This document shows, in pieces, positions 34,496 through 43,076 of a stretch of DNA of 64,000 nucleotides. The stretch lies in the IMG/VR virus record IMGVR_UViG_3300013119_001061; one strand, written 5' to 3'. The notes beneath the pieces are model-generated. The model did no database searches, was not told where the DNA came from, and saw only the letters and a list, made by a program, of their open reading frames with translations. How positions within the stretch are numbered: the stretch's first letter is position 1; each line of letters begins with the position of its first letter. This DNA comes from a virus. Made by a program: the position numbers and the translations under genes.

Positions 34496-34807
34496 ATGAA
34501 AATAACTCTCGCTGAGCTAAGATGCTTAATTAAAGAAGCAATTGCTGATACAGGCGACTCTTTCGACCCACTTTCATTCCTAAGAAGATCAAGGAAGGTA
34601 AACTATAAACCCCTACCAGATAGCATGCGACGAGAGTATGATGCAGCCACTACGATATTGAGCACCGCAAGTGATACAATGTCTCTTGAAGAGCTTATTC
34701 ATTCACTTGAAACCGACGAGAACCCCATAGAGAGATCTGCCGCTGATCCTCGGTATGCGCAGATTGAGCTAGCATGGATCGAGCACCAGCATGCACAGAA
34801 GGCATAG
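34496..34807 (+). CDS. Hypothetical protein with N-terminal leader (putative virion protein)
   Basis: MKITLAELRCLIKEAI; ATATTTA at 34464. Confidence 0.6.
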   Translation: MKITLAELRCLIKEAIADTGDSFDPLSFLRRSRKVNYKPLPDSMRREYDAATTILSTASDTMSLEELIHSLETDENPIERSAADPRYAQIELAWIEHQHAQKA

Positions 34808-34816
34808 CAACTTAGA

Positions 34817-35323
34817 TTGGAACTTTCCCTTGGGATAAAGAACAAAAAGATTAGGATCGCGTTCTACAAAGGGCCAATGAACTGGCGAACGTGGATTGTC
34901 AAGTGGCGAACTGGCGGAACATATACTCACTGTGAATTAGTGATGCCGTCAGGCGACTGTATTGGTATTTCACCAGAAGATTCACCGCCAAGAATCAGGA
35001 TGAAGCGACAAGAACTACCCGATGATGATTGGGATTTCATCGACATAATGGTCGACAAGATCCAGATCATAAAGATCATTTCGTTTTTCAATAGCACATA
35101 CGGGCATAAATACGACTGGTTCGGGATGGTGATGTCATATGCTTCGCCTTGGTTCATCAAACATGAGAGAAAATGGTACTGCAGTCAATGGATTGCGACG
35201 CTGCTCACAGTGTCTGATGTTTATTCATTTAACTATATCAAGATGTCGCCGACAAAACTATATGACATGCTGAGCATGAAAGTCAATAACGGATTAATCG
35301 ACGGATCAGTAGAAGATGCATGA
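34817..35323 (+). CDS. Permuted papain-like NlpC/P60 (YiiX-like) enzyme
   Basis: YTHCELV..KYDW..WYCSQW (His before Cys). Confidence 0.75.
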   Translation: MELSLGIKNKKIRIAFYKGPMNWRTWIVKWRTGGTYTHCELVMPSGDCIGISPEDSPPRIRMKRQELPDDDWDFIDIMVDKIQIIKIISFFNSTYGHKYDWFGMVMSYASPWFIKHERKWYCSQWIATLLTVSDVYSFNYIKMSPTKLYDMLSMKVNNGLIDGSVEDA

Positions 35324-35402
35324 TCTCTTTTCTAGCGAGTGGTTCAAAATTGCAATGGTTGCATTACTCATCATCGCTCTAAGGGCCTCGGGAAAGCAAT
35401 AA
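35316..35402 (+). CDS. Tiny single-TM peptide (28 aa; not in the ORF track)
   Basis: MHDLFSSEWFKIAMVALLIIALRASGKQ*, coupled to both neighbours. Confidence 0.4.
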   Translation: MHDLFSSEWFKIAMVALLIIALRASGKQ

Positions 35403-35885
35403 ATGATATTAAGTTTAATTTTAGCTGCAAATATTTGTAATAGCCCAATAAAATTAAACACTGGGTATATTTCTTCCCATTATGGCCCGAGGCAAATGAT
35501 TAAGAACGGCTTAGTGTCACACCACGACGGAGTTGATATTGCAGCAAAAGTTGGGACACCAATCTATTCAATTCAGGCAGGTAAGATAAAGTCAGTTCAT
35601 ATTCAAGACGATGGAGCAAAGATTGTCGACACTATTTCAGTTGATGATCAAGGTGTTTCCAGGATTATACGATATGCTCACCTAAGCAAATTTTCTGTCA
35701 CAGAAGGTCAGCTTATTGAATCGGGTGGATTAATCGGTTATGTGGGAATGACTGGGAATACAACCGGCCCACACGTTCATATTTCAACAGCCCTTTATGT
35801 TCACAATAAGGGTAAATACATTCATCAAAATCCCGAAAAAGTTTTAAACCTCTGTAAATACAAGGTGAAAATTGAGTATAAATAA
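35403..35885 (+). CDS. M23 family metallopeptidase (paralog of 5776)
   Basis: HDGVDI, YAHL, VGMTGNTTGPHVH. Confidence 0.88.
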   Translation: MILSLILAANICNSPIKLNTGYISSHYGPRQMIKNGLVSHHDGVDIAAKVGTPIYSIQAGKIKSVHIQDDGAKIVDTISVDDQGVSRIIRYAHLSKFSVTEGQLIESGGLIGYVGMTGNTTGPHVHISTALYVHNKGKYIHQNPEKVLNLCKYKVKIEYK

Positions 35886-35937
35886 AGCAGCTCTGTCAAT
35901 CACTAGCAAGGTTTTTAAAAATAAATGAAAAAAAGAG

Positions 35938-35964
35938 GAAACCCTCTCGAAAAATGTCCGATAA
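35938..35964 (+). promoter_or_regulatory. Sigma-28 (FliA/WhiG)-like promoter
   Basis: GAAA-N15-TCCGATAA versus consensus TAAA-N15-GCCGATAA; followed by GGGAGG RBS. Confidence 0.55.
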
Positions 35965-36000
35965 TATAGATAGGAAAACAATTAATGGGAGGTTTTCAAA

Positions 36001-36825
36001 ATGGTAGTTGGAATTAATTCTCTTGGGACACGCGTTAATAAAGCAATGGATAATCTTGGTTACCCAGATGCAATTGGCGATATTGTCGGAGCCCAAACTG
36101 ATCTTGCAACCTTTAACATCTCAGGCGCAGTTCAAAACTGGAAAGATCTATTCTCAGGAATGCCGACTGCAAAGTTTCTAACTAAACCATCTGATGCAAT
36201 TGCGCGATCACGACAATTGCATAGTGACACATATGCAGCAGGTTCAGGTGGAACATTGGCTACTGCACTCCAAAAGATGGACGGCGAACTCATGGATCTT
36301 ATGAAAGCTGCAGGTTCAAAAGTAGGTTCATTAATGAATCAACAAGGGAGTGGCCAAGCTGACCTTGGCGATCTGGTCGGCCCAAATGCACCAATTGAAG
36401 ACCGAATTGCAGCTTTCTTGTTCAAGCAAATGAAGGAAAGCGATAAAGCTCTTGAAGCACAAATGAAGAAATACGAAGCTATCGGTAAATCTACCAAAAA
36501 GAAATCGGGTGGATTCTTTGGTTCAATCAAATCTGCATTCAAATCAGTTGCATCATCTGCATTTTCAATCGGCGGAGGAGCGCTCGGCGGAATGATCGGC
36601 GGTCCAATCGGAACCAAACTCGGTTCTGCGTTCGGCGGCGGATTATTCGGCGGAATGTTCGGCAAGAAAAAAGCAGCTAGTAGTGACAAGGAACATTCAA
36701 AATCAGTAATGAACTTTAAGATTCAGCAATTGATGAACAAAAGGGCACAATTACATGACTTAATATCTAATGTTTTAAAAACGATGCATTCAATGAGCAT
36801 GAATTGCATTAGAAATATAAAATAA
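36001..36825 (+). CDS. T3SS-substrate-like protein (needle/tip/translocon-like C-terminal helix)
   Basis: Gly-rich hydrophobic hairpin, coiled coil, C-terminus IQQLMNKRAQLHDLISNVLKTMHSMSMNCIRNIK. Confidence 0.55.
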   Translation: MVVGINSLGTRVNKAMDNLGYPDAIGDIVGAQTDLATFNISGAVQNWKDLFSGMPTAKFLTKPSDAIARSRQLHSDTYAAGSGGTLATALQKMDGELMDLMKAAGSKVGSLMNQQGSGQADLGDLVGPNAPIEDRIAAFLFKQMKESDKALEAQMKKYEAIGKSTKKKSGGFFGSIKSAFKSVASSAFSIGGGALGGMIGGPIGTKLGSAFGGGLFGGMFGKKKAASSDKEHSKSVMNFKIQQLMNKRAQLHDLISNVLKTMHSMSMNCIRNIK

Positions 36826-36840
36826 TAAATATTTATCAAT

Positions 36841-37803
36841 ATGTTAGTTGAAACATTTTACATAGTTCCGGCAGATGGAAAACAAAAAAACCCAAGAAAG
36901 AAGCTGGTTGCTAAATTTAGTTGTGATATATGCAGTGAAGAATTTCAATCTTCAAATTCAATAAAAAAGAAGATTAAAAGAAATAATCACTTTTGTTCTA
37001 AGTTTTGTTTCGGTGAATCTTTAAGAAATTCTGGTCATTTAAGACGACAGATAGAAGATACAAATTTAAAAAAGTATGGAGTAAAAAATCCTGCGTCACT
37101 CAAAGAAACTAAAGAGAAAATAGAGAACACTAGATTAAAAAAGTATGGTGTAAAGCACTTGATGCAATCGCAGGAATTCTTAGACAAGAGGGTTAAAACA
37201 TATATTAAGAATCTTGGTGTTGATAATCCGTCAAAATCAAAAGAAGTTCAAGATAAGAAGGTTATGACTAGCATAAAGAACCACGGAGCAACTCATCCGC
37301 ACATGAGTAAAAAAATACAAGAAAAATATAAGAAAACATGTAGGGAGAGGTTTGGTGTAGATAACCCGCTATCAAATAACAGGGTAAGAGAAAAATGCAA
37401 AGAAACGCTTGTGAAAAGATATGGTGTAGAGTTTTCACTACAGTCTGACGAGATAATTGAAAAATTTTATAAAACAAAATTTGGAATATCAAGAAGCGAC
37501 TACATTGCACAACTGCCAGAGTTTGAAAACTACAAAAGAGAAGTAAGTAAGATCACAAACCAACAACCCATTCACTTGCTAGAAAACTCTAATAAAAATA
37601 GAGGTAAAGGTGAAGACGACTACCAGCTTGATCACATGTTTTCAAAGCGGGAAGGTTTTTTACAAGATATAGATTCAGAAATAATTGGAAATATATGCAA
37701 TCTTGAATTCATCCCGGCAAGAGAAAATATATCAAAGGGAAAAGATTGCTCGATATCAAAAGAAGAACTAATAAAAAGATTCAACGAATCAGATAAGGAA
37801 TAA
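36841..37803 (+). mobile_element. Homing-endonuclease-like gene (Zn finger, KYGVxNP repeats, HNH-like C-terminus)
   Basis: CDIC..CSKFC; about six (K/R)YGVxxP repeats; LDHMFS..NLEFIPARENISK. Confidence 0.75.
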
Positions 37804-37806
37804 AAA

Positions 37807-38295
37807 ATGACCGGTATCAATAGATTAAACAGTGGAAATTCAATTCGAGTTAATTCGGCACCGCTTCATACCCGACAAACTGCAAGAAATGATTTTGGGT
37901 CACAGATAGGCCGCGGAGTTGCTAACGGTGCAAATGCTGTAGCTGGCGCTGTTGCAGTTGCTGCACCATTCGTCCCAGGCGGAGCGGTTGTAAGTGCTAC
38001 CATAAATCAAGCAGCAGGCGCCATCGGCAATTACGCCCCAGGTGGAACAATGAATACTCCGGGCCAGATGCCGGGACCAAATACCCAAATTGGTGCTGGT
38101 CAAGCCGGAACCTCAAGCACACAATCACTGATGGATCAAACTAAGCAAATGCAGGAGATGCAGATGTCGTTCAATCTACAATATCTAAATCTTCAAAATA
38201 AGATGCAAAATGAGAATCGTCAATATAGTACTATCTCAAATGTCCTTAAAGCAAAGTCAGATACTGCTAAGAACGCAATAAATAATATACGCTAA
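37807..38295 (+). CDS. T3SS needle/filament subunit-like protein (SctF/EspA-like C-terminus)
   Basis: LQYLNLQNKMQNENRQYSTISNVLKAKSDTAKNAINNIR matches the SctF pattern LQ..x..SNx.K..xD....IxN.R. Confidence 0.65.
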   Translation: MTGINRLNSGNSIRVNSAPLHTRQTARNDFGSQIGRGVANGANAVAGAVAVAAPFVPGGAVVSATINQAAGAIGNYAPGGTMNTPGQMPGPNTQIGAGQAGTSSTQSLMDQTKQMQEMQMSFNLQYLNLQNKMQNENRQYSTISNVLKAKSDTAKNAINNIR

Positions 38296-38297
38296 AA

Positions 38298-38705
38298 ATG
38301 GATATCCCTGGTCTTAATATACAGATACCTGCAGTTAATCCTCAAGTATCACCACAGAATATATCTAAGAGTTTCCAGGATGTCCTTAGTGAAGGTTCGT
38401 CTTCTTCTACAATAGGTAATATATCTTCCACCCAAAAGATGACAGAAGTCACACCTACACCAAAACTCCGAGTAGACAAAACAGAAAATACAAACTTCAA
38501 TAAAATATTCTCAGGTTTGATATCTGGGCAAGGGAAACTCGACAAAATAATCAAGCTTGCAACCTCAGGAAAGTCATTCAGTCCTACCGAACTACTTGCA
38601 ATTCAAGCAGGAGTTTATAAATTCAGTCAGGAACTTGAATTAACTTCAAAGGTGGTCGAAAAAGCAACTGATGGTGTTAAACAGACTTTACAGACTCAGG
38701 TATAA
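38298..38705 (+). CDS. T3SS inner-rod protein-like (SctI/YscI/HrpB2)
   Basis: SPTELLAIQAGVYKFSQELELTSKVVEKATDGVKQTLQTQ matches the SctI C-terminal consensus. Confidence 0.72.
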   Translation: MDIPGLNIQIPAVNPQVSPQNISKSFQDVLSEGSSSSTIGNISSTQKMTEVTPTPKLRVDKTENTNFNKIFSGLISGQGKLDKIIKLATSGKSFSPTELLAIQAGVYKFSQELELTSKVVEKATDGVKQTLQTQV

Positions 38706-38756
38706 ATCTTTCCTCGCATAGGGTATATTTATTAATACCTTCCTCGGAGTGTGTAT

Positions 38757-39203
38757 ATGCAAATCAAGTTAAATGAATTACGTCAAATAATTCGAGAAGA
38801 ACTAAGCAGAATCAATGAATCATCTGAACATGATCACGAAACGATTTGGGATAAAGCTGACGAAATGTTAAAGTCAGAACTATCTCCTGACGAGATAAGT
38901 CAGTTTATGGGTCTTGCTGCACTTTACGATGAAGGAAAAACATATACAGAAATTCAAGGTTGGCTTCGGTTTAGGCCTCAAATAAAGAGGCTTTTAATTT
39001 CAGCTGCTTTAGGAAACAAACCTAAATCAGTTAAAAAACATTTAAACCGTTTGTCAAAATATTTAGATGAGTATTTAAAAGTATCAAATCAATCTATTGA
39101 CGACCTTCAAGATGACGGCTGGGATTCTTTCGTTGGAATATCTGAAGAAATTATGTCTAATCCAATGAGTGCATCATTTTTAAAAAGGCGATGGAAGTCG
39201 TAA
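38757..39203 (+). CDS. Hypothetical protein with N-terminal leader
   Basis: MQIKLNELRQIIREELSRINE; ATATTTA at 38725. Confidence 0.6.
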   Translation: MQIKLNELRQIIREELSRINESSEHDHETIWDKADEMLKSELSPDEISQFMGLAALYDEGKTYTEIQGWLRFRPQIKRLLISAALGNKPKSVKKHLNRLSKYLDEYLKVSNQSIDDLQDDGWDSFVGISEEIMSNPMSASFLKRRWKS

Positions 39204-39209
39204 GATACG

Positions 39210-39884
39210 ATGCCTAATATGAAACTAATAATGGAAAACTGGCGTGGGTTCCTAAAAGAATCCAAACACGACGTCAAAGTTCGTCACTTATCATTCGAAA
39301 TGATGCAATATATCAAATCAGGTGAAACAGAAGATCCATTCATAACTGACATAACAATCAAAAACCACAATCTAATCGATCCTGACGACGAGTTTGATGA
39401 CCCTGAAACCTGGGACGACGTTGAGGTCACACTTGATGTCCTCCGAGATCCAGAGTGGGGAATTCCGTTCACATTAAACGGAGGAGCTTCAGGCGATGCT
39501 ATCGAACTAAACTTGACAATAAATCCAGAATACGAACCAAACATCTGGTCAGATATCAATATCGAACTCCACGATGCCATCCGACACGAAATAGAGCATA
39601 TAACCCAGGATAGAAATCCAAGTAAAGGGCTAAAAGATTCACATCAGGAAAGCACACTTCCATATGCAGAATATCTTTTACTCCCACACGAAATACCGGC
39701 CTTCGTTAACGGCTTCAATGCCAGAAGGAAAAAAATGAAATCTACTTTAACTCAAGCTATAGATGATTTCTTGGTCAAGCATAGGGCAATGTTCACAAAC
39801 GGCAAAGAAGACAAAGAAATAAAAAGAGTTAGACAGGTATGGCTCGACTGGGCAAAAGAAAACTTGCCTAACACACCAATGTAA
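39210..39884 (+). CDS. HExxH zincin-like protein with N-terminal leader
   Basis: MKLIMENWRGFLKE; RHEIEHITQ..HEIPA. Confidence 0.6.
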   Translation: MPNMKLIMENWRGFLKESKHDVKVRHLSFEMMQYIKSGETEDPFITDITIKNHNLIDPDDEFDDPETWDDVEVTLDVLRDPEWGIPFTLNGGASGDAIELNLTINPEYEPNIWSDINIELHDAIRHEIEHITQDRNPSKGLKDSHQESTLPYAEYLLLPHEIPAFVNGFNARRKKMKSTLTQAIDDFLVKHRAMFTNGKEDKEIKRVRQVWLDWAKENLPNTPM

Positions 39885-39916
39885 GATATTTATTAAATGA
39901 CTTCCGGGATTTTATT

Positions 39917-41122
39917 ATGACACTAAATGAAAATGACTTGCGATTGCTAATTAGATCTATTCTGCAAGAGCAAGAAGAGCCTGAAGAAGAAGAAGCGCTC
40001 GAAGTAGAGAAAGAAGATTTGACGCCGTTCGAGATGTCAACAGTTGCAAAAAACAAAGCAGCTATTTTCATACAAGTGCTGAAGTCATTAGGGCTCCCGG
40101 TCAGAGACAAACATGTTAAAGCAAGTATAAAATCTGGAGGCGAAATTCGGGTAGCAATAGATCAGGATGTTACAGAGCCCAAAACTGAAAAAGAGCTCCT
40201 GACTTTCGTCGAACTAGCATTCCAAAAAATACTAGGTAGAGATGTCGAAGTCGAAGTTCTCTCTCCGAATGAGGGAAGAAATACTAGCGGAACATATGCA
40301 GGATACAGTGTTGAAGGGCAACCACTAATTTCATTTGGGAATTCTGGATTTGGAAAATCGCAACGGGCCGGAGGGTTCGAATATGAAACAAGAATGGCAG
40401 AATTCCTTAAGGATGAAAACATAGACTTTAAAGCTGACGACAACATGAAGACGTCAGACATAGAGATAAACGGAATTATGATCGAACTCAAAAAACAAGA
40501 TGCCGATGGTGGTTCACCAGCTCTTGTGTATGACTTCAACAAATCAGAATTTTATCCGAAGCGTAGCTCAAGTGCAAATAATTACCTTGTAGATATGATC
40601 AACTCAACATTTGACAAAGAAGAGACAAAGCGAAAACTTGATATCATCAAAAACAAAATCAACCTCGACGCTGCTACGCTCCAGTCAGTCACTATGGAGC
40701 AGTTTGAAACAATAGTTCAGCCTTTTCTAGAAAAAGAGGCAAATCAAAATGTATCTAATTCAAAAATTACCTCTGAAGACATAGCGATGTACTATAGAGA
40801 AAAAGGGGCTAAGTTTATTCAAATACGGGGCAAGGGATTATATCATATAGATGAAAAAAATGCTGCAACCCTAGGTGACGGAAGGAAGACATCGCTGTTT
40901 ACTTTCCCGGACGACGTCGGTGCAGCAGTTACTTTTAGAAACTATCACGGTGCTCGCGCCCTCCGCCCAAGAATAAAGGGAAGTGCATTCAAGAAGCCGG
41001 AAAACTCTCCCGTTAGCCTCGACAATCCTGAAGATCGTAAGCTTTTTGCAGCCTGGGCTGAGAAACAAAACCTCAACGAATCTACACAAAATCGCTGGGA
41101 ACTTTTAGCGGGAATTAAGTAA
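39917..41122 (+). CDS. Putative PD-(D/E)xK nuclease-fold virion protein
   Basis: GFEYE..SDIEI..IELKK; leader ENDLRLLIRSILQE and C-terminal LNE..RWELLAGIK. Confidence 0.5.
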   Translation: MTLNENDLRLLIRSILQEQEEPEEEEALEVEKEDLTPFEMSTVAKNKAAIFIQVLKSLGLPVRDKHVKASIKSGGEIRVAIDQDVTEPKTEKELLTFVELAFQKILGRDVEVEVLSPNEGRNTSGTYAGYSVEGQPLISFGNSGFGKSQRAGGFEYETRMAEFLKDENIDFKADDNMKTSDIEINGIMIELKKQDADGGSPALVYDFNKSEFYPKRSSSANNYLVDMINSTFDKEETKRKLDIIKNKINLDAATLQSVTMEQFETIVQPFLEKEANQNVSNSKITSEDIAMYYREKGAKFIQIRGKGLYHIDEKNAATLGDGRKTSLFTFPDDVGAAVTFRNYHGARALRPRIKGSAFKKPENSPVSLDNPEDRKLFAAWAEKQNLNESTQNRWELLAGIK

Positions 41123-41172
41123 TAAATTTAAAAGACATGTGTTATAATCTTTCATAACGTATAGGAGAAAGC

Positions 41173-42015
41173 GTGAAAATCCAAGAGACTCTTGCCTACG
41201 AAGATGTTCTACTCGTCCCCCAATACTCAGACATTAAATCCCGATCAGAATGTGACACATCAGTCACTCTCGGCTCCGGAGTCAATCTCAAGCTACCCAT
41301 TATTGCATCATGCATGGACACGGTGACTGAAGCTGAGATGGCTGCAGCAATCGGTCTTATGGGTGGCCTCGGCGTCATCCACCGGTATAATTCGCCAGAG
41401 GAACAAGCACAGCAAGTAATAAAAGCAATACAATTATCAGAGCATGAGGCACCTATTGCCGCAGCGATTGGAGTAACAGATGACTATTTTCACCGAGCAG
41501 ACCTTCTTGTTAATGCTGGAGCCTCTGCTCTTTGCATTGATGTGGCACATGGTCACCACATTCTCGTAAAAGAGGTGCTAGAGGAGCTTCGTGCTACTCT
41601 GGGTGAGGATTTTTGCTTGATTGCAGGTAATGTTGCCACCCTCGAGGGAATTAACGACCTCGCTGATTGGGGGGCTAACGCAGTACGCTGCAACATCGGC
41701 GGAGGCTGCTTTGTTCCGGGTACAAAAGTTCGAACTGAAAACGGTTTAAAGAATATTGAAAATGTTAAAGTCGGTGATAGAGTCTATACACATACAGGAA
41801 ATCTAAAGCCAGTTATTGATACATTAGCTTTTGATAGAAGTGAAGCAATAACTGTGATTAACGATATTGAATGTACATCAAATCATGAATTTTATGTCGT
41901 AAACAGAGAAGATGTCGAACTTATCAATGAAAACAATATTCACGAGTATGCAAAGTGGATCGCAGCATATGATCTAGACGAACAGCAACATCTTTTAATA
42001 AAAACATTGGAATAG
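41173..42015 (+). CDS. guaB: IMP dehydrogenase/GMP reductase N-fragment + split-intein N-half (41707-42012, 102 aa)
   Basis: DVLLVP, MDTVTE, IDVAHGH, AGNVAT, NIGGG|CFVPGTKV..CTSNHEF. Confidence 0.92.
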   Translation: MKIQETLAYEDVLLVPQYSDIKSRSECDTSVTLGSGVNLKLPIIASCMDTVTEAEMAAAIGLMGGLGVIHRYNSPEEQAQQVIKAIQLSEHEAPIAAAIGVTDDYFHRADLLVNAGASALCIDVAHGHHILVKEVLEELRATLGEDFCLIAGNVATLEGINDLADWGANAVRCNIGGGCFVPGTKVRTENGLKNIENVKVGDRVYTHTGNLKPVIDTLAFDRSEAITVINDIECTSNHEFYVVNREDVELINENNIHEYAKWIAAYDLDEQQHLLIKTLE

Positions 42016-42065
42016 GATCAAAATGTATCTACTTGTATATTTATATACATAGGGAGCCATATTCA

Positions 42066-43076
42066 ATGTGTAGTAAAGAAAAATATTGTAGAGAGTGCGG
42101 AGAATCAATATCGAGCAAAAAAACATTTTGCGATTCGATTTGCTATGAGAAAAATAGAAAAGTTGATGATATAAAAAAGTGCAATTATTGCAAAGAAGAC
42201 TTTGCTTGCCAGGGTTCTAGTCGGCTATACTGCTCTAAAGAATGCAGAACTAAAGGGACGAGAGTTAAAAATGGATATAAGAAAAAGCTCTGTCAAGAAT
42301 GCAAAGAAGAAATATTGGGCCGCGGCACCAAATACTGTTCAAACAAATGCAAAGGGCTAGCAAAGGCTGGCAAGAATAACTCATTTTATGGCAAGAAGCA
42401 CTCTAAAGAAACCAGGGAGAAGATAAGAAATGCTCTATCAGGAAAGCTATCCGGAGACAAAAATCCATTTTACGGCAAAATACACTCGGATGCTACAAAA
42501 CAGAAGATAATTGATGGAAACAAAAAATTTAGAGAAGAAAATAAAGTCTTAGTTCTTGAAAGAACACTGCGACGTCTAGGTTTGACTGAAAGCAAGCTGG
42601 AGGGCCTGTGGCACACGTATTCGACCACACTCGAGTTTAACCAGAGTGATCTTAAAAGACTCGCGGGCAACATAGACATAAGATCGATTAAAAAATATTT
42701 GTTCTTTTTTAATATAGTTGATGAAGATGAATTTGAAAAAACTGTGCATAAGAAAAAGATGGGTCGAGCCGGATCTTCCCCTGAGCGACGATTATATGAA
42801 ATGTTATGTGCTAAGTTTGGCAGGAGAAACATAAGTAGGCAATTTAAGATAGAGAGAAAGTTTTATGATTTTATAGTTTTTGGAAAATATTTGATAGAAT
42901 ATGATGGTTATTACTGGCATAATAATTCAAAATCAAGAGACGATATTAAGGATGACATTGCAAAAAGAAGTGGATATCCTTTGTATCGAGTAAAAGAGCC
43001 AAAAAATAGAAGCGTTGATTTTATTGATGAAATAGAAAAAATTGAAGGGTTTATAAATGAAGTTCGAATTAGTTGA
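42066..43076 (+). mobile_element. Free-standing homing endonuclease (Zn fingers, NUMOD3, Vsr/DUF559-like nuclease) between the IMPDH halves
   Basis: CxxC..CSxxC repeats, NSFYGKKHSKET, FYDF..IEYDGYYWH; GGGAG RBS before ATG 42066. Confidence 0.82.

Follow-up and report, generated by a model that had tools for sequence, protein, structure and literature searches.

The locus described here raises the question of why a large marine phage would carry three genes whose products resemble the exported parts of a bacterial type III secretion system (T3SS), and what such parts might do in an infected cell. The window that we analyzed (64,000 nucleotides of IMG/VR virus record IMGVR_UViG_3300013119_001061) encodes on its + strand ph274 (positions 36001-36825; 274 aa, with the C-terminus ISNVLKTMHSMSMNCIRNIK), ph162 (37807-38295; 162 aa, with the C-terminus STISNVLKAKSDTAKNAINNIR), and ph135 (38298-38705; 135 aa, with the C-terminus VVEKATDGVKQTLQTQV), which we regard as translocator/tip-like, needle-like, and SctI (inner-rod)-like homologues of T3SS substrates, respectively. 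A preliminary description, made from the sequence alone, had delimited these three open reading frames and quoted their C-termini, all of which are present in the ORF listing, but it did not mention a fourth + strand gene within the interval, at 36841-37803. This gene encodes a homing endonuclease (DUF7487; Pfam PF24308, 1.2e-27; phrog_3339, 2.6e-20; also phrog_12131), has a GC content of 32%, and plays no part in the function of the cassette; its insertion between the cassette genes was seen in the window's phage only and is absent from the cassettes of the related phage loci L056, L058, and L059. Directly downstream, a + strand ORF of 150 aa (38751-39203) belongs to no Pfam or PHROG family. 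Its counterpart, 58% identical, lies directly 3' of the cassette in L056/L057 and is absent in L058/L059; in some phages this ORF may have a role accessory to the cassette. The other cassette neighbors in the window are metabolic and replication genes, with an M23 peptidase gene just upstream.

The window is phage DNA. Its genes are all encoded on the same strand; among them are those for T4-type topoisomerase II subunits, a family-B DNA polymerase, a ribonucleotide reductase, and a helicase. The possibility that the cassette is a chimeric bacterial insert, which the preliminary description had itself raised, is ruled out because the two junctions are each spanned by contigs that derive from further samples in two studies (covering 34800-38608, 35290-37006, and 37312-39653, at 99% identity or more), and also by codon composition: the GC3 of the three cassette genes is 28-34%, which is phage-like, whereas that of their bacterial homologues is 64-73%. 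Further, a 212-kb contig carries an identical 135-aa protein. A blastn search of positions 34500-42000 against 50,697 GenBank phages returned no match. The same preliminary description held that the phage carries exported parts only, with no basal-body, export-apparatus, or ATPase gene in the window, and both points were borne out. Specifically, a tblastn search with 60 canonical T3SS proteins (E<=0.01) found no match in the window, nor did any of five related phage loci give one; the phage encodes no chaperone, export-gate, or basal-body gene, and a search of the window for further host-derived T3SS genes recovered only generic homologues (ClpB, an epimerase, and a topoisomerase).

What, then, are the three proteins? 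For ph135, the C-terminal helix of ~55 residues aligns end to end with that of SctI proteins (YscI/AscI, MxiI, PrgJ, HrpB2), including the terminal ...TL(L/Q)(K/T)xQ tail, and the N-terminal half is disordered and variable, as in SctI. Its top matches were PF17001 in Pfam (E 0.006, 17.5 bits, below the cut-off of 32.4) and NF038054 in NCBIfam (E 0.017, 15.2 bits, below the cut-off of 39). PF17001 was matched by 22 of the 23 members of the ph135 family (best E 1.4e-4), and FliE was weakly matched by 3 of the 23. When compared by hhalign with a SctI reference alignment of only four sequences (AscI/MxiI/HrpB2/Desulfovibrio), the family aligned to the last residue, reciprocally (E 8e-5, probability 61%), against a probability of 3% for the SctF control. 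A bacterial protein of 167 aa is ~80% identical to ph135 over the last 70 residues, and in each of five Myxococcota genomes with a Ysc-like SctV the ph135 homologue is the best genome-wide PF17001 match. The SctI-type assignment made earlier therefore stands on the top-ranked SctI models, the hhalign result, and the genome-wide ranking, although the scores fall below both curated cut-offs. Other features set ph135 apart from known SctI: it is phage-encoded, its bacterial homologue follows a FliA-like sigma gene rather than preceding sctJ, and the C-terminal 60 residues of its family are near invariant phylum-wide. Relative to the host form, ph135 lacks ~30 residues of the N-terminal half, and the phage copies share a fixed S125D within an otherwise near-invariant C-terminal helix while keeping 43 of the 48 bacterial columns conserved at >=95%.

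The case of ph162 is different in kind. Canonical SctF is an alpha-hairpin of roughly 80 aa (about 80-90) with a central PxxP-type turn, whereas members of the ph162 family span 162-230 aa, show no recognized helix-turn-helix, and have a Gly-rich linker and an N-terminal part that is conserved and contains the hydrophobic segment AAPFVPGGAVV. The long C-terminal helix (~103-161) nevertheless resembles SctF helix 2. In hhalign, the match of the ph162 family to the SctF set was reciprocal and confined to the C-terminal helix (E 2.9e-4, probability 40%, 38 columns to the very C-terminus), so that the last 38 residues align with the second helix of needle proteins (YscF/AscF, MxiH, PrgI; also the Hrp pilins HrpA/HrpE), while the controls against SctI and SctX failed. 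A Pfam search with ph162 gave no match, and among 26 family members none matched the PF09392 needle profile at E<=1; no PxxP turn was found ahead of the SctF-aligned helix, and a low-confidence AlphaFold2 (AF2) model gave a single long helix at 103-161 with no hairpin. The candidate identity as SctX, prompted by a SctY-like TPR neighbor of the bacterial homologue, was ruled out (hhalign probability 0.3%). Full-length identity to a Myxococcota protein of 172 aa is 62-63%, and the phage copies keep 29 of the 37 bacterial columns conserved at >=95%, although the copy in the window deviates at two nearly invariant residues, T149 and H151. Of the SctF-type helix claimed at the outset, then, the weak C-terminal match and the operon context point tentatively to a needle-like subunit, but ph162 is not a canonical hairpin of ~80 aa.

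In the remaining protein, ph274, we distinguish a conserved N-terminal region and a coiled region, as well as a hydrophobic stretch of the Gly-zipper type (at ~residues 168-222; moderate, with a KD19 maximum of 1.15) and a C-terminal helix that is needle-like. It is homologous over its full length to bacterial proteins of 366-371 aa (59% identity over the C-terminal 194 aa and 44% over the N-terminal 97 aa), from which the phage form differs by the loss of a central 85-95 aa, missing in all 14 phage copies. The homologue's gene follows, in order, those of a non-flagellar SctU, a 142-aa protein, and a 147-aa TPR protein, and it adjoins the non-flagellar SctU in three genomes (G001, G005, and G002). 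The related C-terminus and Gly-rich hydrophobic stretch noted in the preliminary description are present, but we do not read ph274 as a second needle; it is a shortened homologue of the 369-aa bacterial protein, and because that protein is encoded after SctU and a TPR gene, we regard it as translocator- or tip-like. This position near SctU and after a TPR gene is shared with translocators, filament, and tip proteins (SctB/SctE, EspA, NolX/HrpF), and the combination of a hydrophobic Gly-zipper region with a needle-like C-terminal helix also recalls translocators. Unlike them, ph274 matched no family at all in Pfam and no T3SS translocator or tip family in NCBIfam, its hydrophobicity is only moderate, and the phage form is short of the central residues. 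The Atlas leads for ph274 (NolX, EspA, SctB2, and needle_F) all scored <0.9 and serve as leads only, and a PHROG search gave weak tape-measure-like matches (E 3e-4) through the Gly-rich region.

The bacterial context places these families beside type III systems. All three cassette proteins have full-length homologues in uncultured Myxococcota, in line with the likeness to this phylum suggested from the start. The five genomes examined as host types all encode a SctV that is 45-48% identical to AscV and to Desulfovibrio SctV, along with a SctJ-L-N locus, and none has a match to the canonical needle family PF09392. In the bacterial operon the genes run in the order 80 aa, F-like, TPR, 127 aa, sigma, I-like, an arrangement that is conserved even among distantly related Myxococcota and parallels that of yscE-F-G-H-I; specifically, the ph162 homologue is flanked by genes for a small helical protein on one side and a small TPR protein on the other, which corresponds to the placement of yscF between yscE and yscG. 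By hhalign, the TPR protein matches SctY (E 1.3e-9, probability 96%) and SctG (E 6e-5, probability 64%). The gene directly upstream of the I-like gene encodes a FliA/WhiG-like sigma factor (TIGR02479, 7.5e-38, sub-threshold) in all bacterial loci that were examined. Unlike in classical clusters, the F-like and I-like genes are not adjacent to sctJ or sctD; the injectisome genes of the marine Myxococcota are scattered over several loci, and the cassette homologues come from at least two separate ones. The F-like/I-like pair was found in 243 of 301 and in 34 of 41 sampled Myxococcota genomes, and within the latter sample both families are absent from the four genomes lacking a FHIPEP match and from the one with a flagellar-grade match only. 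Among cultivable, non-pathogenic myxobacteria, Myxococcus xanthus is one carrier of the 166-aa and F-like homologues. The reference alignments used throughout were built from Aeromonas, Shigella, Ralstonia, and Desulfovibrio only; the ranges retrieved from Salmonella, Providencia, and Y. enterocolitica plasmid regions contained no annotated sctF or sctI. The literature on myxobacterial type III systems calls them "needleless" or reports that SctF is missing (PMC3459982, PMC12075869). The pair of proteins identified here is likely the rod and needle of these systems.

On this evidence, the cassette proteins are likely homologues of T3SS substrates. No match for any of them reached a curated family threshold, and phmmer searches with each protein and hmmsearch with the family profiles A1 and A2 found no T3SS chain among PDB sequences. 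The Foldseek comparison with the PDB proposed in the preliminary description gave nothing significant for either of the two proteins compared: there were no rows for ph162, and for ph135 the top row was the Shigella inner rod (8axk_O, E 1.7, not significant), with another T3SS chain, 7ah9_1L, in the fifth row. The AF2 monomer models were of low confidence (pLDDT 49-51), the proteins being largely disordered apart from the C-terminal helix. The named Atlas leads, again leads only, are T3SS needle, pilus, or translocon families without exception.

The cassette is also held by several relatives of this large marine phage. A search of related phages, another of the checks put forward at the outset, found the same three genes adjacent in three phage lineages with differing flanking genes; a distance of 5-7 kb separates the cassette from the terminase and portal genes in L058/L059. 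In a quick tree of ph162, the phage copies form one clade (aLRT 94) nested within a marine Myxococcota clade (aLRT 97). Judged from these sequence relationships, the cassette is host-derived, an ancestral phage having apparently taken the genes from marine Myxococcota, and every phage copy is shorter than the host form. As the preliminary description had supposed, a literature search gave no phage with SctF/SctI-type genes.

One further observation connects a phage product to a host protein. YscF is held by YscG, and in a complex prediction the C-terminal helix of ph162 (residues 136-162) occupies the groove of the host TPR chaperone in a like manner, with a score of 0.75 against 0.01 for the best of three controls; of 80 solved complexes, 58 attain this mark, as do 2 of 110 mismatched pairs. 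The model runs showed at least 76% contact agreement, with a partner pLDDT of at least 64, although the model was built on alignments made for this analysis and its pass may echo the solved YscE-F-G and PscE-F-G complexes. We take this modeled binding as the one positive hint that the phage proteins may enter the host injectisome.

We propose that the cassette encodes phage versions of three outer parts of the host's type III secretion machine that are exported and self-assemble, namely, an SctI-like rod, a needle-like subunit, and a translocator/tip-like protein, which several large phages have retained together since their uptake from marine Myxococcota. Host chaperones, as modeled for ph162, would hold the phage-made subunits, and the host export apparatus would secrete them so that they polymerize on host basal bodies. 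The phage contribution would be confined to extracellular parts that are consumable and present in high copy, and infected cells might thereby keep their injectisome working, or have it rebuilt to phage specification, as host gene expression declines. We put the probability of this overall proposal, in which the phage supplies outer parts for a host injectisome, at roughly 0.5. Within it, we lean toward supply or re-tooling over jamming, because the phages maintain three classes of substrate, although a block would take only one, and because the conserved termini are retained. Rod and needle belong to the early substrates, whose export is normally restricted to injectisomes under assembly; a benefit to the phage would therefore depend on incomplete basal bodies being present during infection. 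The trimmed phage forms and the S125D change in ph135 could equally mark an altered or inhibitory function.

The latter features bring in the alternative of interference, whereby altered look-alike subunits would find their way into the injectisome of the host, capping, shortening, plugging, or re-surfacing it, with a gain to the phage that could be energy saved, a receptor masked, or the exclusion of phages that use the structure. Besides the trimming of all phage copies and the fixed S125D in the ph135 helix, the departures of the window's ph162 at T149 and H151 would fit such a role, as would the retention of polymerization and chaperone interfaces, which a dominant-negative subunit needs; in Salmonella and Yersinia, moreover, both the length of the needle and substrate switching are influenced by the rod-to-needle ratio. 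We nonetheless think it doubtful, given that one gene would suffice to poison assembly, yet three substrate classes occur together in all lineages seen, and that most bacterial-invariant positions are retained, the N-terminal segments included. We also know of no phage that uses an injectisome needle as its receptor. It is improbable that the families belong instead to an undescribed Myxococcota-specific system or to the flagellum, their likeness to needle and rod being convergent coiled-coil similarity. The sub-threshold family matches, the weak FliE matches, the flagella genes present in four of the five host-type genomes, and the separation of the F-like and I-like genes from sctJ and sctD could be read in that way, but G004 has the pair without flagellar rod genes, and G016, with a flagellar-grade FlhA match only, lacks it. 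The adjacency of the ph274 homologue to a non-flagellar SctU, the SctY-like TPR neighbor, the reciprocal and specific hhalign matches, and the uniformly T3SS character of the named Atlas leads all speak against it as well.

Two more alternatives were considered. One or more cassette proteins might titrate a host regulator or chaperone in the cytoplasm and in this way switch the expression of late or T3SS genes of the host; FlgM-like action of the SctI-like protein on the FliA-like sigma factor encoded just upstream of its bacterial homologue would be one example. The constant position of the sigma gene upstream of the bacterial I-like gene is suggestive here, the disorder of the proteins outside the C-terminal helix is FlgM-like, and occupancy of the host chaperone by a phage subunit, as modeled, would also titrate it. 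However, there is no FlgM-family signal, SctI being the consistent one, and such hijacking leaves the retention of three structural-type genes unexplained, so we rate it as quite unlikely. The lowest probability falls to a virion or ejection device, in which these helical, membrane-active proteins would be re-used as phage ejection or channel proteins independently of any host T3SS. The tape-measure-like PHROG matches of ph274, the M23 peptidase gene just upstream, and the proximity to terminase and portal genes in L058/L059 are what such a device might leave behind, yet the M23 and structural genes are unlinked to the cassette in other phages, and the neighbors in the window are metabolic and replication genes. 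Further, subunits that interact only with one another could drift, yet the bacterial-invariant residues are kept, and the assembly of needle- and rod-type subunits normally requires a type III export gate.

Returning to the supply of outer parts by the phage, phages are known to carry injected effectors (for example, the T3SS effector SopE-phi) and metabolic helper genes (for example, cyanophage psbA). Like these, the cassette would consist of host-derived genes under selection on the phage that act through a host machine the phage does not encode; its cargo differs, however, in being self-assembling structural subunits of a secretion machine rather than an enzyme, a photosystem core, or an effector. 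More tentatively, the phage may build its own rod, needle, and tip/translocon on the ready-made basal bodies of the host, giving a virocell with a phage-specified injectisome, a version that we find possible but would not favor. If it is true, this would be the first virus to encode the structural filament of a bacterial secretion nanomachine, which might serve, for example, for continued feeding on prey or on a eukaryotic partner during infection, or for the export of phage products, and, as a by-product, the type III systems of Myxococcota would gain candidates for their long-missing needle, rod, and translocator.

These observations bear on both the phages and their putative hosts. Marine Myxococcota become a host lead for a group of uncultured phages with genomes of 200 kb and more, and the rod and needle candidates make an open question of myxobacterial predation directly testable. 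If the phage subunits do enter the host injectisome, viruses would have a new route for taking over a surface organelle of bacteria, and the cassette would offer natural subunits compatible with the host machine yet unlike the host's own.

The three cassette genes, encoding a translocator/tip-like protein (ph274; 36001-36825, 274 aa), a needle-like protein (ph162; 37807-38295, 162 aa), and an inner-rod-like protein (ph135; 38298-38705, 135 aa), exist as the preliminary description had read them; all lie on the plus strand, and a single strand carries every sizeable ORF of the window. The window is phage DNA, with T4-type topoisomerase II subunits, a family-B DNA polymerase, an RNR, a helicase, and a ClpB-like ATPase among its gene content. 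Between the ph274 and ph162 genes sits a DUF7487 homing endonuclease (36841-37803; Pfam 1.2e-27; PHROG homing endonuclease), the gene of which has a GC content of 32% and the site of which is empty in the related phage loci L056, L058, and L059. Other neighbors include an M23 peptidase gene (35403-35885; Pfam 8e-20) just 5' of the cassette, which is unlinked to it in other phages; a 224-aa ORF (39210-39884) two genes 3' of the cassette, which contains an HEIEH (HExxH-type) motif and matches no family; and, within 41173-43076, an IMPDH/GMP-reductase-like ORF that continues into Hint/intein-like sequence (CFVPGTKV...), the next ORF beginning 17 bases past its end.

The cassette is present on four viral contigs in IMG/VR, one of 235,681 bp, and a 212-kb contig encodes a protein identical to ph135. 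Further, the three genes are found, adjacent and without the endonuclease, in two other phage lineages, namely, on a 235-kb contig (273/160/133 aa) and in a phage with TubZ and a T4-type terminase and portal (269/157/124 aa). Within 8 kb on each side, nothing but the three cassette genes is common to all these loci, and a 150-aa ORF is additionally shared by the window and one lineage. Cassette-bearing relatives also encode a PilX_N-domain (minor-pilin-like) protein (L056, 799-1287) and a TubZ tubulin (L058, 12669-13802). The preliminary description had named a chimeric bacterial insert as one way in which its reading could fail. Such a chimera is ruled out, as contigs recovered from further samples of two studies span 34800-38608, 35290-37006, and 37312-39653, junctions included, at an identity of at least 99%, and the GC3 of the three genes (28-34%) is phage-like (41% GC overall), in contrast to the 64-73% of their bacterial homologues.

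[quoted passage not shown] For ph135, the best matches in Pfam (T3SS_basalb_I, PF17001; E 0.006) and NCBIfam (T3SS_SctI; E 0.017) fall below the curated cut-offs, and the PF17001 match recurs in 22 of 23 relatives, which share a near-invariant C-terminus and, hence, are not 22 independent matches. The family profile aligns with a small SctI reference set (AscI, MxiI, HrpB2, and Desulfovibrio) through the last residue (E 8e-5, probability 61%), compared with a probability of 3% against SctF as a control, which supports the proposed SctI-type C-terminal helix. The match of ph162 to the proposed SctF-type helix is weak. Specifically, the last 38 residues of the family profile align with SctF (AscF, MxiH, and Desulfovibrio; E 2.9e-4, probability 40%), whereas the remainder, in which the N-terminal motif is conserved and a Gly-rich linker accompanies the hydrophobic AAPFVPGGAVV segment, is unlike a needle. 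Pfam yielded no needle match for ph162, and alignments of its profile to SctI and SctX both failed. Residues ~49-102 of this family (AAPFVPGG...GT..IPG) weakly resemble each OAA-type lectin repeat (myxobacterial hemagglutinin 4fbr, E 0.0027; P. fluorescens agglutinin, E 0.012), which may be mere Gly/Pro-rich composition. Protein-language-model comparison offered leads only, all scoring <0.9: ph162 resembled T3SS needle or pilus families, and ph274 resembled NolX, EspA, SctB2, and needle families.

Relatives of the cassette proteins number in the hundreds, and the longer forms belong to uncultured Myxococcota, in line with the affinity previously suggested. There, the 172-aa (ph162) and 167-aa (ph135) homologue genes are separated by 2-3 kb, in a conserved operon (an 80-aa helical protein, F-like, a 139-aa TPR protein, a 127-aa protein, a FliA-like sigma factor, and I-like) that parallels yscE-F-G-H-I of annotated Aeromonas and Desulfovibrio clusters. 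The 139-aa TPR protein matches T3SS chaperones (SctY, E 1.3e-9, probability 96%; SctG, E 6e-5). The 369-aa ph274 homologue directly follows SctU, a 142-aa gene, and a 147-aa TPR gene, and this SctU is the non-flagellar copy in three genomes (G001, G005, and G002). In G002, tandem ph274-type paralogues (C54:36575-39031; 384 and 385 aa) recall major/minor translocator pairs, and a third copy adjoins SctU. A FliA/WhiG-like sigma gene lies directly 5' of the I-like gene in every Myxococcota locus examined (L001, 9208-9960; equivalents in L005-L016, L025, and L027), including that of G004, where flagellar rod genes were not found.

Five homologue-bearing genomes all encode SctV (45-48% identity to AscV and Desulfovibrio SctV) and, at a separate locus, SctJ-SctL-SctN; the injectisome is therefore spread over several loci, like that of Chlamydiales (PMC3459982). 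A canonical needle had no match in any of the five, and the best SctI-model match genome-wide was the ph135 homologue in each. Four have flagella; G004 is without them, yet it has the F-like/I-like pair. Across the phylum, the I-like family occurs in 243 of 301 sampled genomes (a count including the unpublished G196, on which no claim depends), with 2-4 gene copies in genomes of 9-13 Mb, and the F-like family occurs in 34 of 41. In the 41-genome sample, the four genomes without an FHIPEP match and the one with a flagellar-grade match alone lack both families.

A quick ML tree groups every known phage ph162 sequence in a single clade (aLRT 94), nested within a clade (aLRT 97) that holds marine MAGs of the G001/G005 type, a placement consistent with one capture from this lineage. 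Given that the homologues occupy two or more separate loci in the host, the phage cassette was assembled and then kept together. Phage copies retain most bacterial columns conserved at ≥95% (29/37 in ph162 and 43/48 in ph135), and every phage form is shorter than the host form: a central stretch of 85-95 residues is missing from ph274 and part of the variable N-terminal half from ph135, and the linker of ph162 is shortened.

The machine itself is not carried by the phage, as proposed from the outset, since a tblastn search with 60 canonical T3SS proteins (from clusters of Aeromonas and Desulfovibrio) returned no match at E ≤ 0.01 in the window or in five related phage loci. None of the chaperone-like genes of the operon are encoded by the phages either. 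Most economically, the phage subunits would rely on the chaperones and export gate of the host and would assemble on its basal bodies. A complex model of ph162 residues 95-162 with the host TPR protein and the 80-aa protein, based on alignments made in this analysis, scored 0.75, whereas the highest of three controls scored 0.01. Of 80 solved complexes, 58 attain this mark, as do 2 of 110 mismatched pairs. The runs of the model share at least 76% of contacts, with partner pLDDT of at least 64, and residues 136-162 are predicted to lie inside the TPR groove. Because complexes of like kind, YscE-F-G and PscE-F-G, have already been solved, this pass may reflect likeness rather than binding.

As to function, we lean toward supply or re-tooling of the host injectisome, because the phages keep three classes of substrate and have retained the conserved termini, and because the set comprises exactly the high-copy, consumable extracellular parts. 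The main rival is interference with that injectisome, for which the trimmed phage forms speak, as does S125D, which is fixed in phage ph135. This change falls within an otherwise near-invariant helix (ATSG to ATDG), with Asp in 82/82 phage-type SctI-like sequences versus Ser in 22/22 bacterial ones; a Ser/Thr kinase gene lies 5' of the bacterial operon (L001, 4605-6377), and a phosphomimetic role is pure speculation. A cytoplasmic regulatory role, toward which the invariable sigma-factor neighbor of the I-like gene points, seems less likely, as do re-use as a virion ejection device and membership of a non-T3SS system.

Text searches of the literature turned up no description of a phage carrying SctF/SctI-type genes. 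Myxococcales T3SS loci have been reported without SctF, tip, or translocon (PMC3459982), and PMC12075869 terms the M. xanthus T3SS “needleless”. The widespread F-like/I-like pair bears on this question, and these families may be the unrecognized needle and rod of the myxobacterial T3SS described without SctF.
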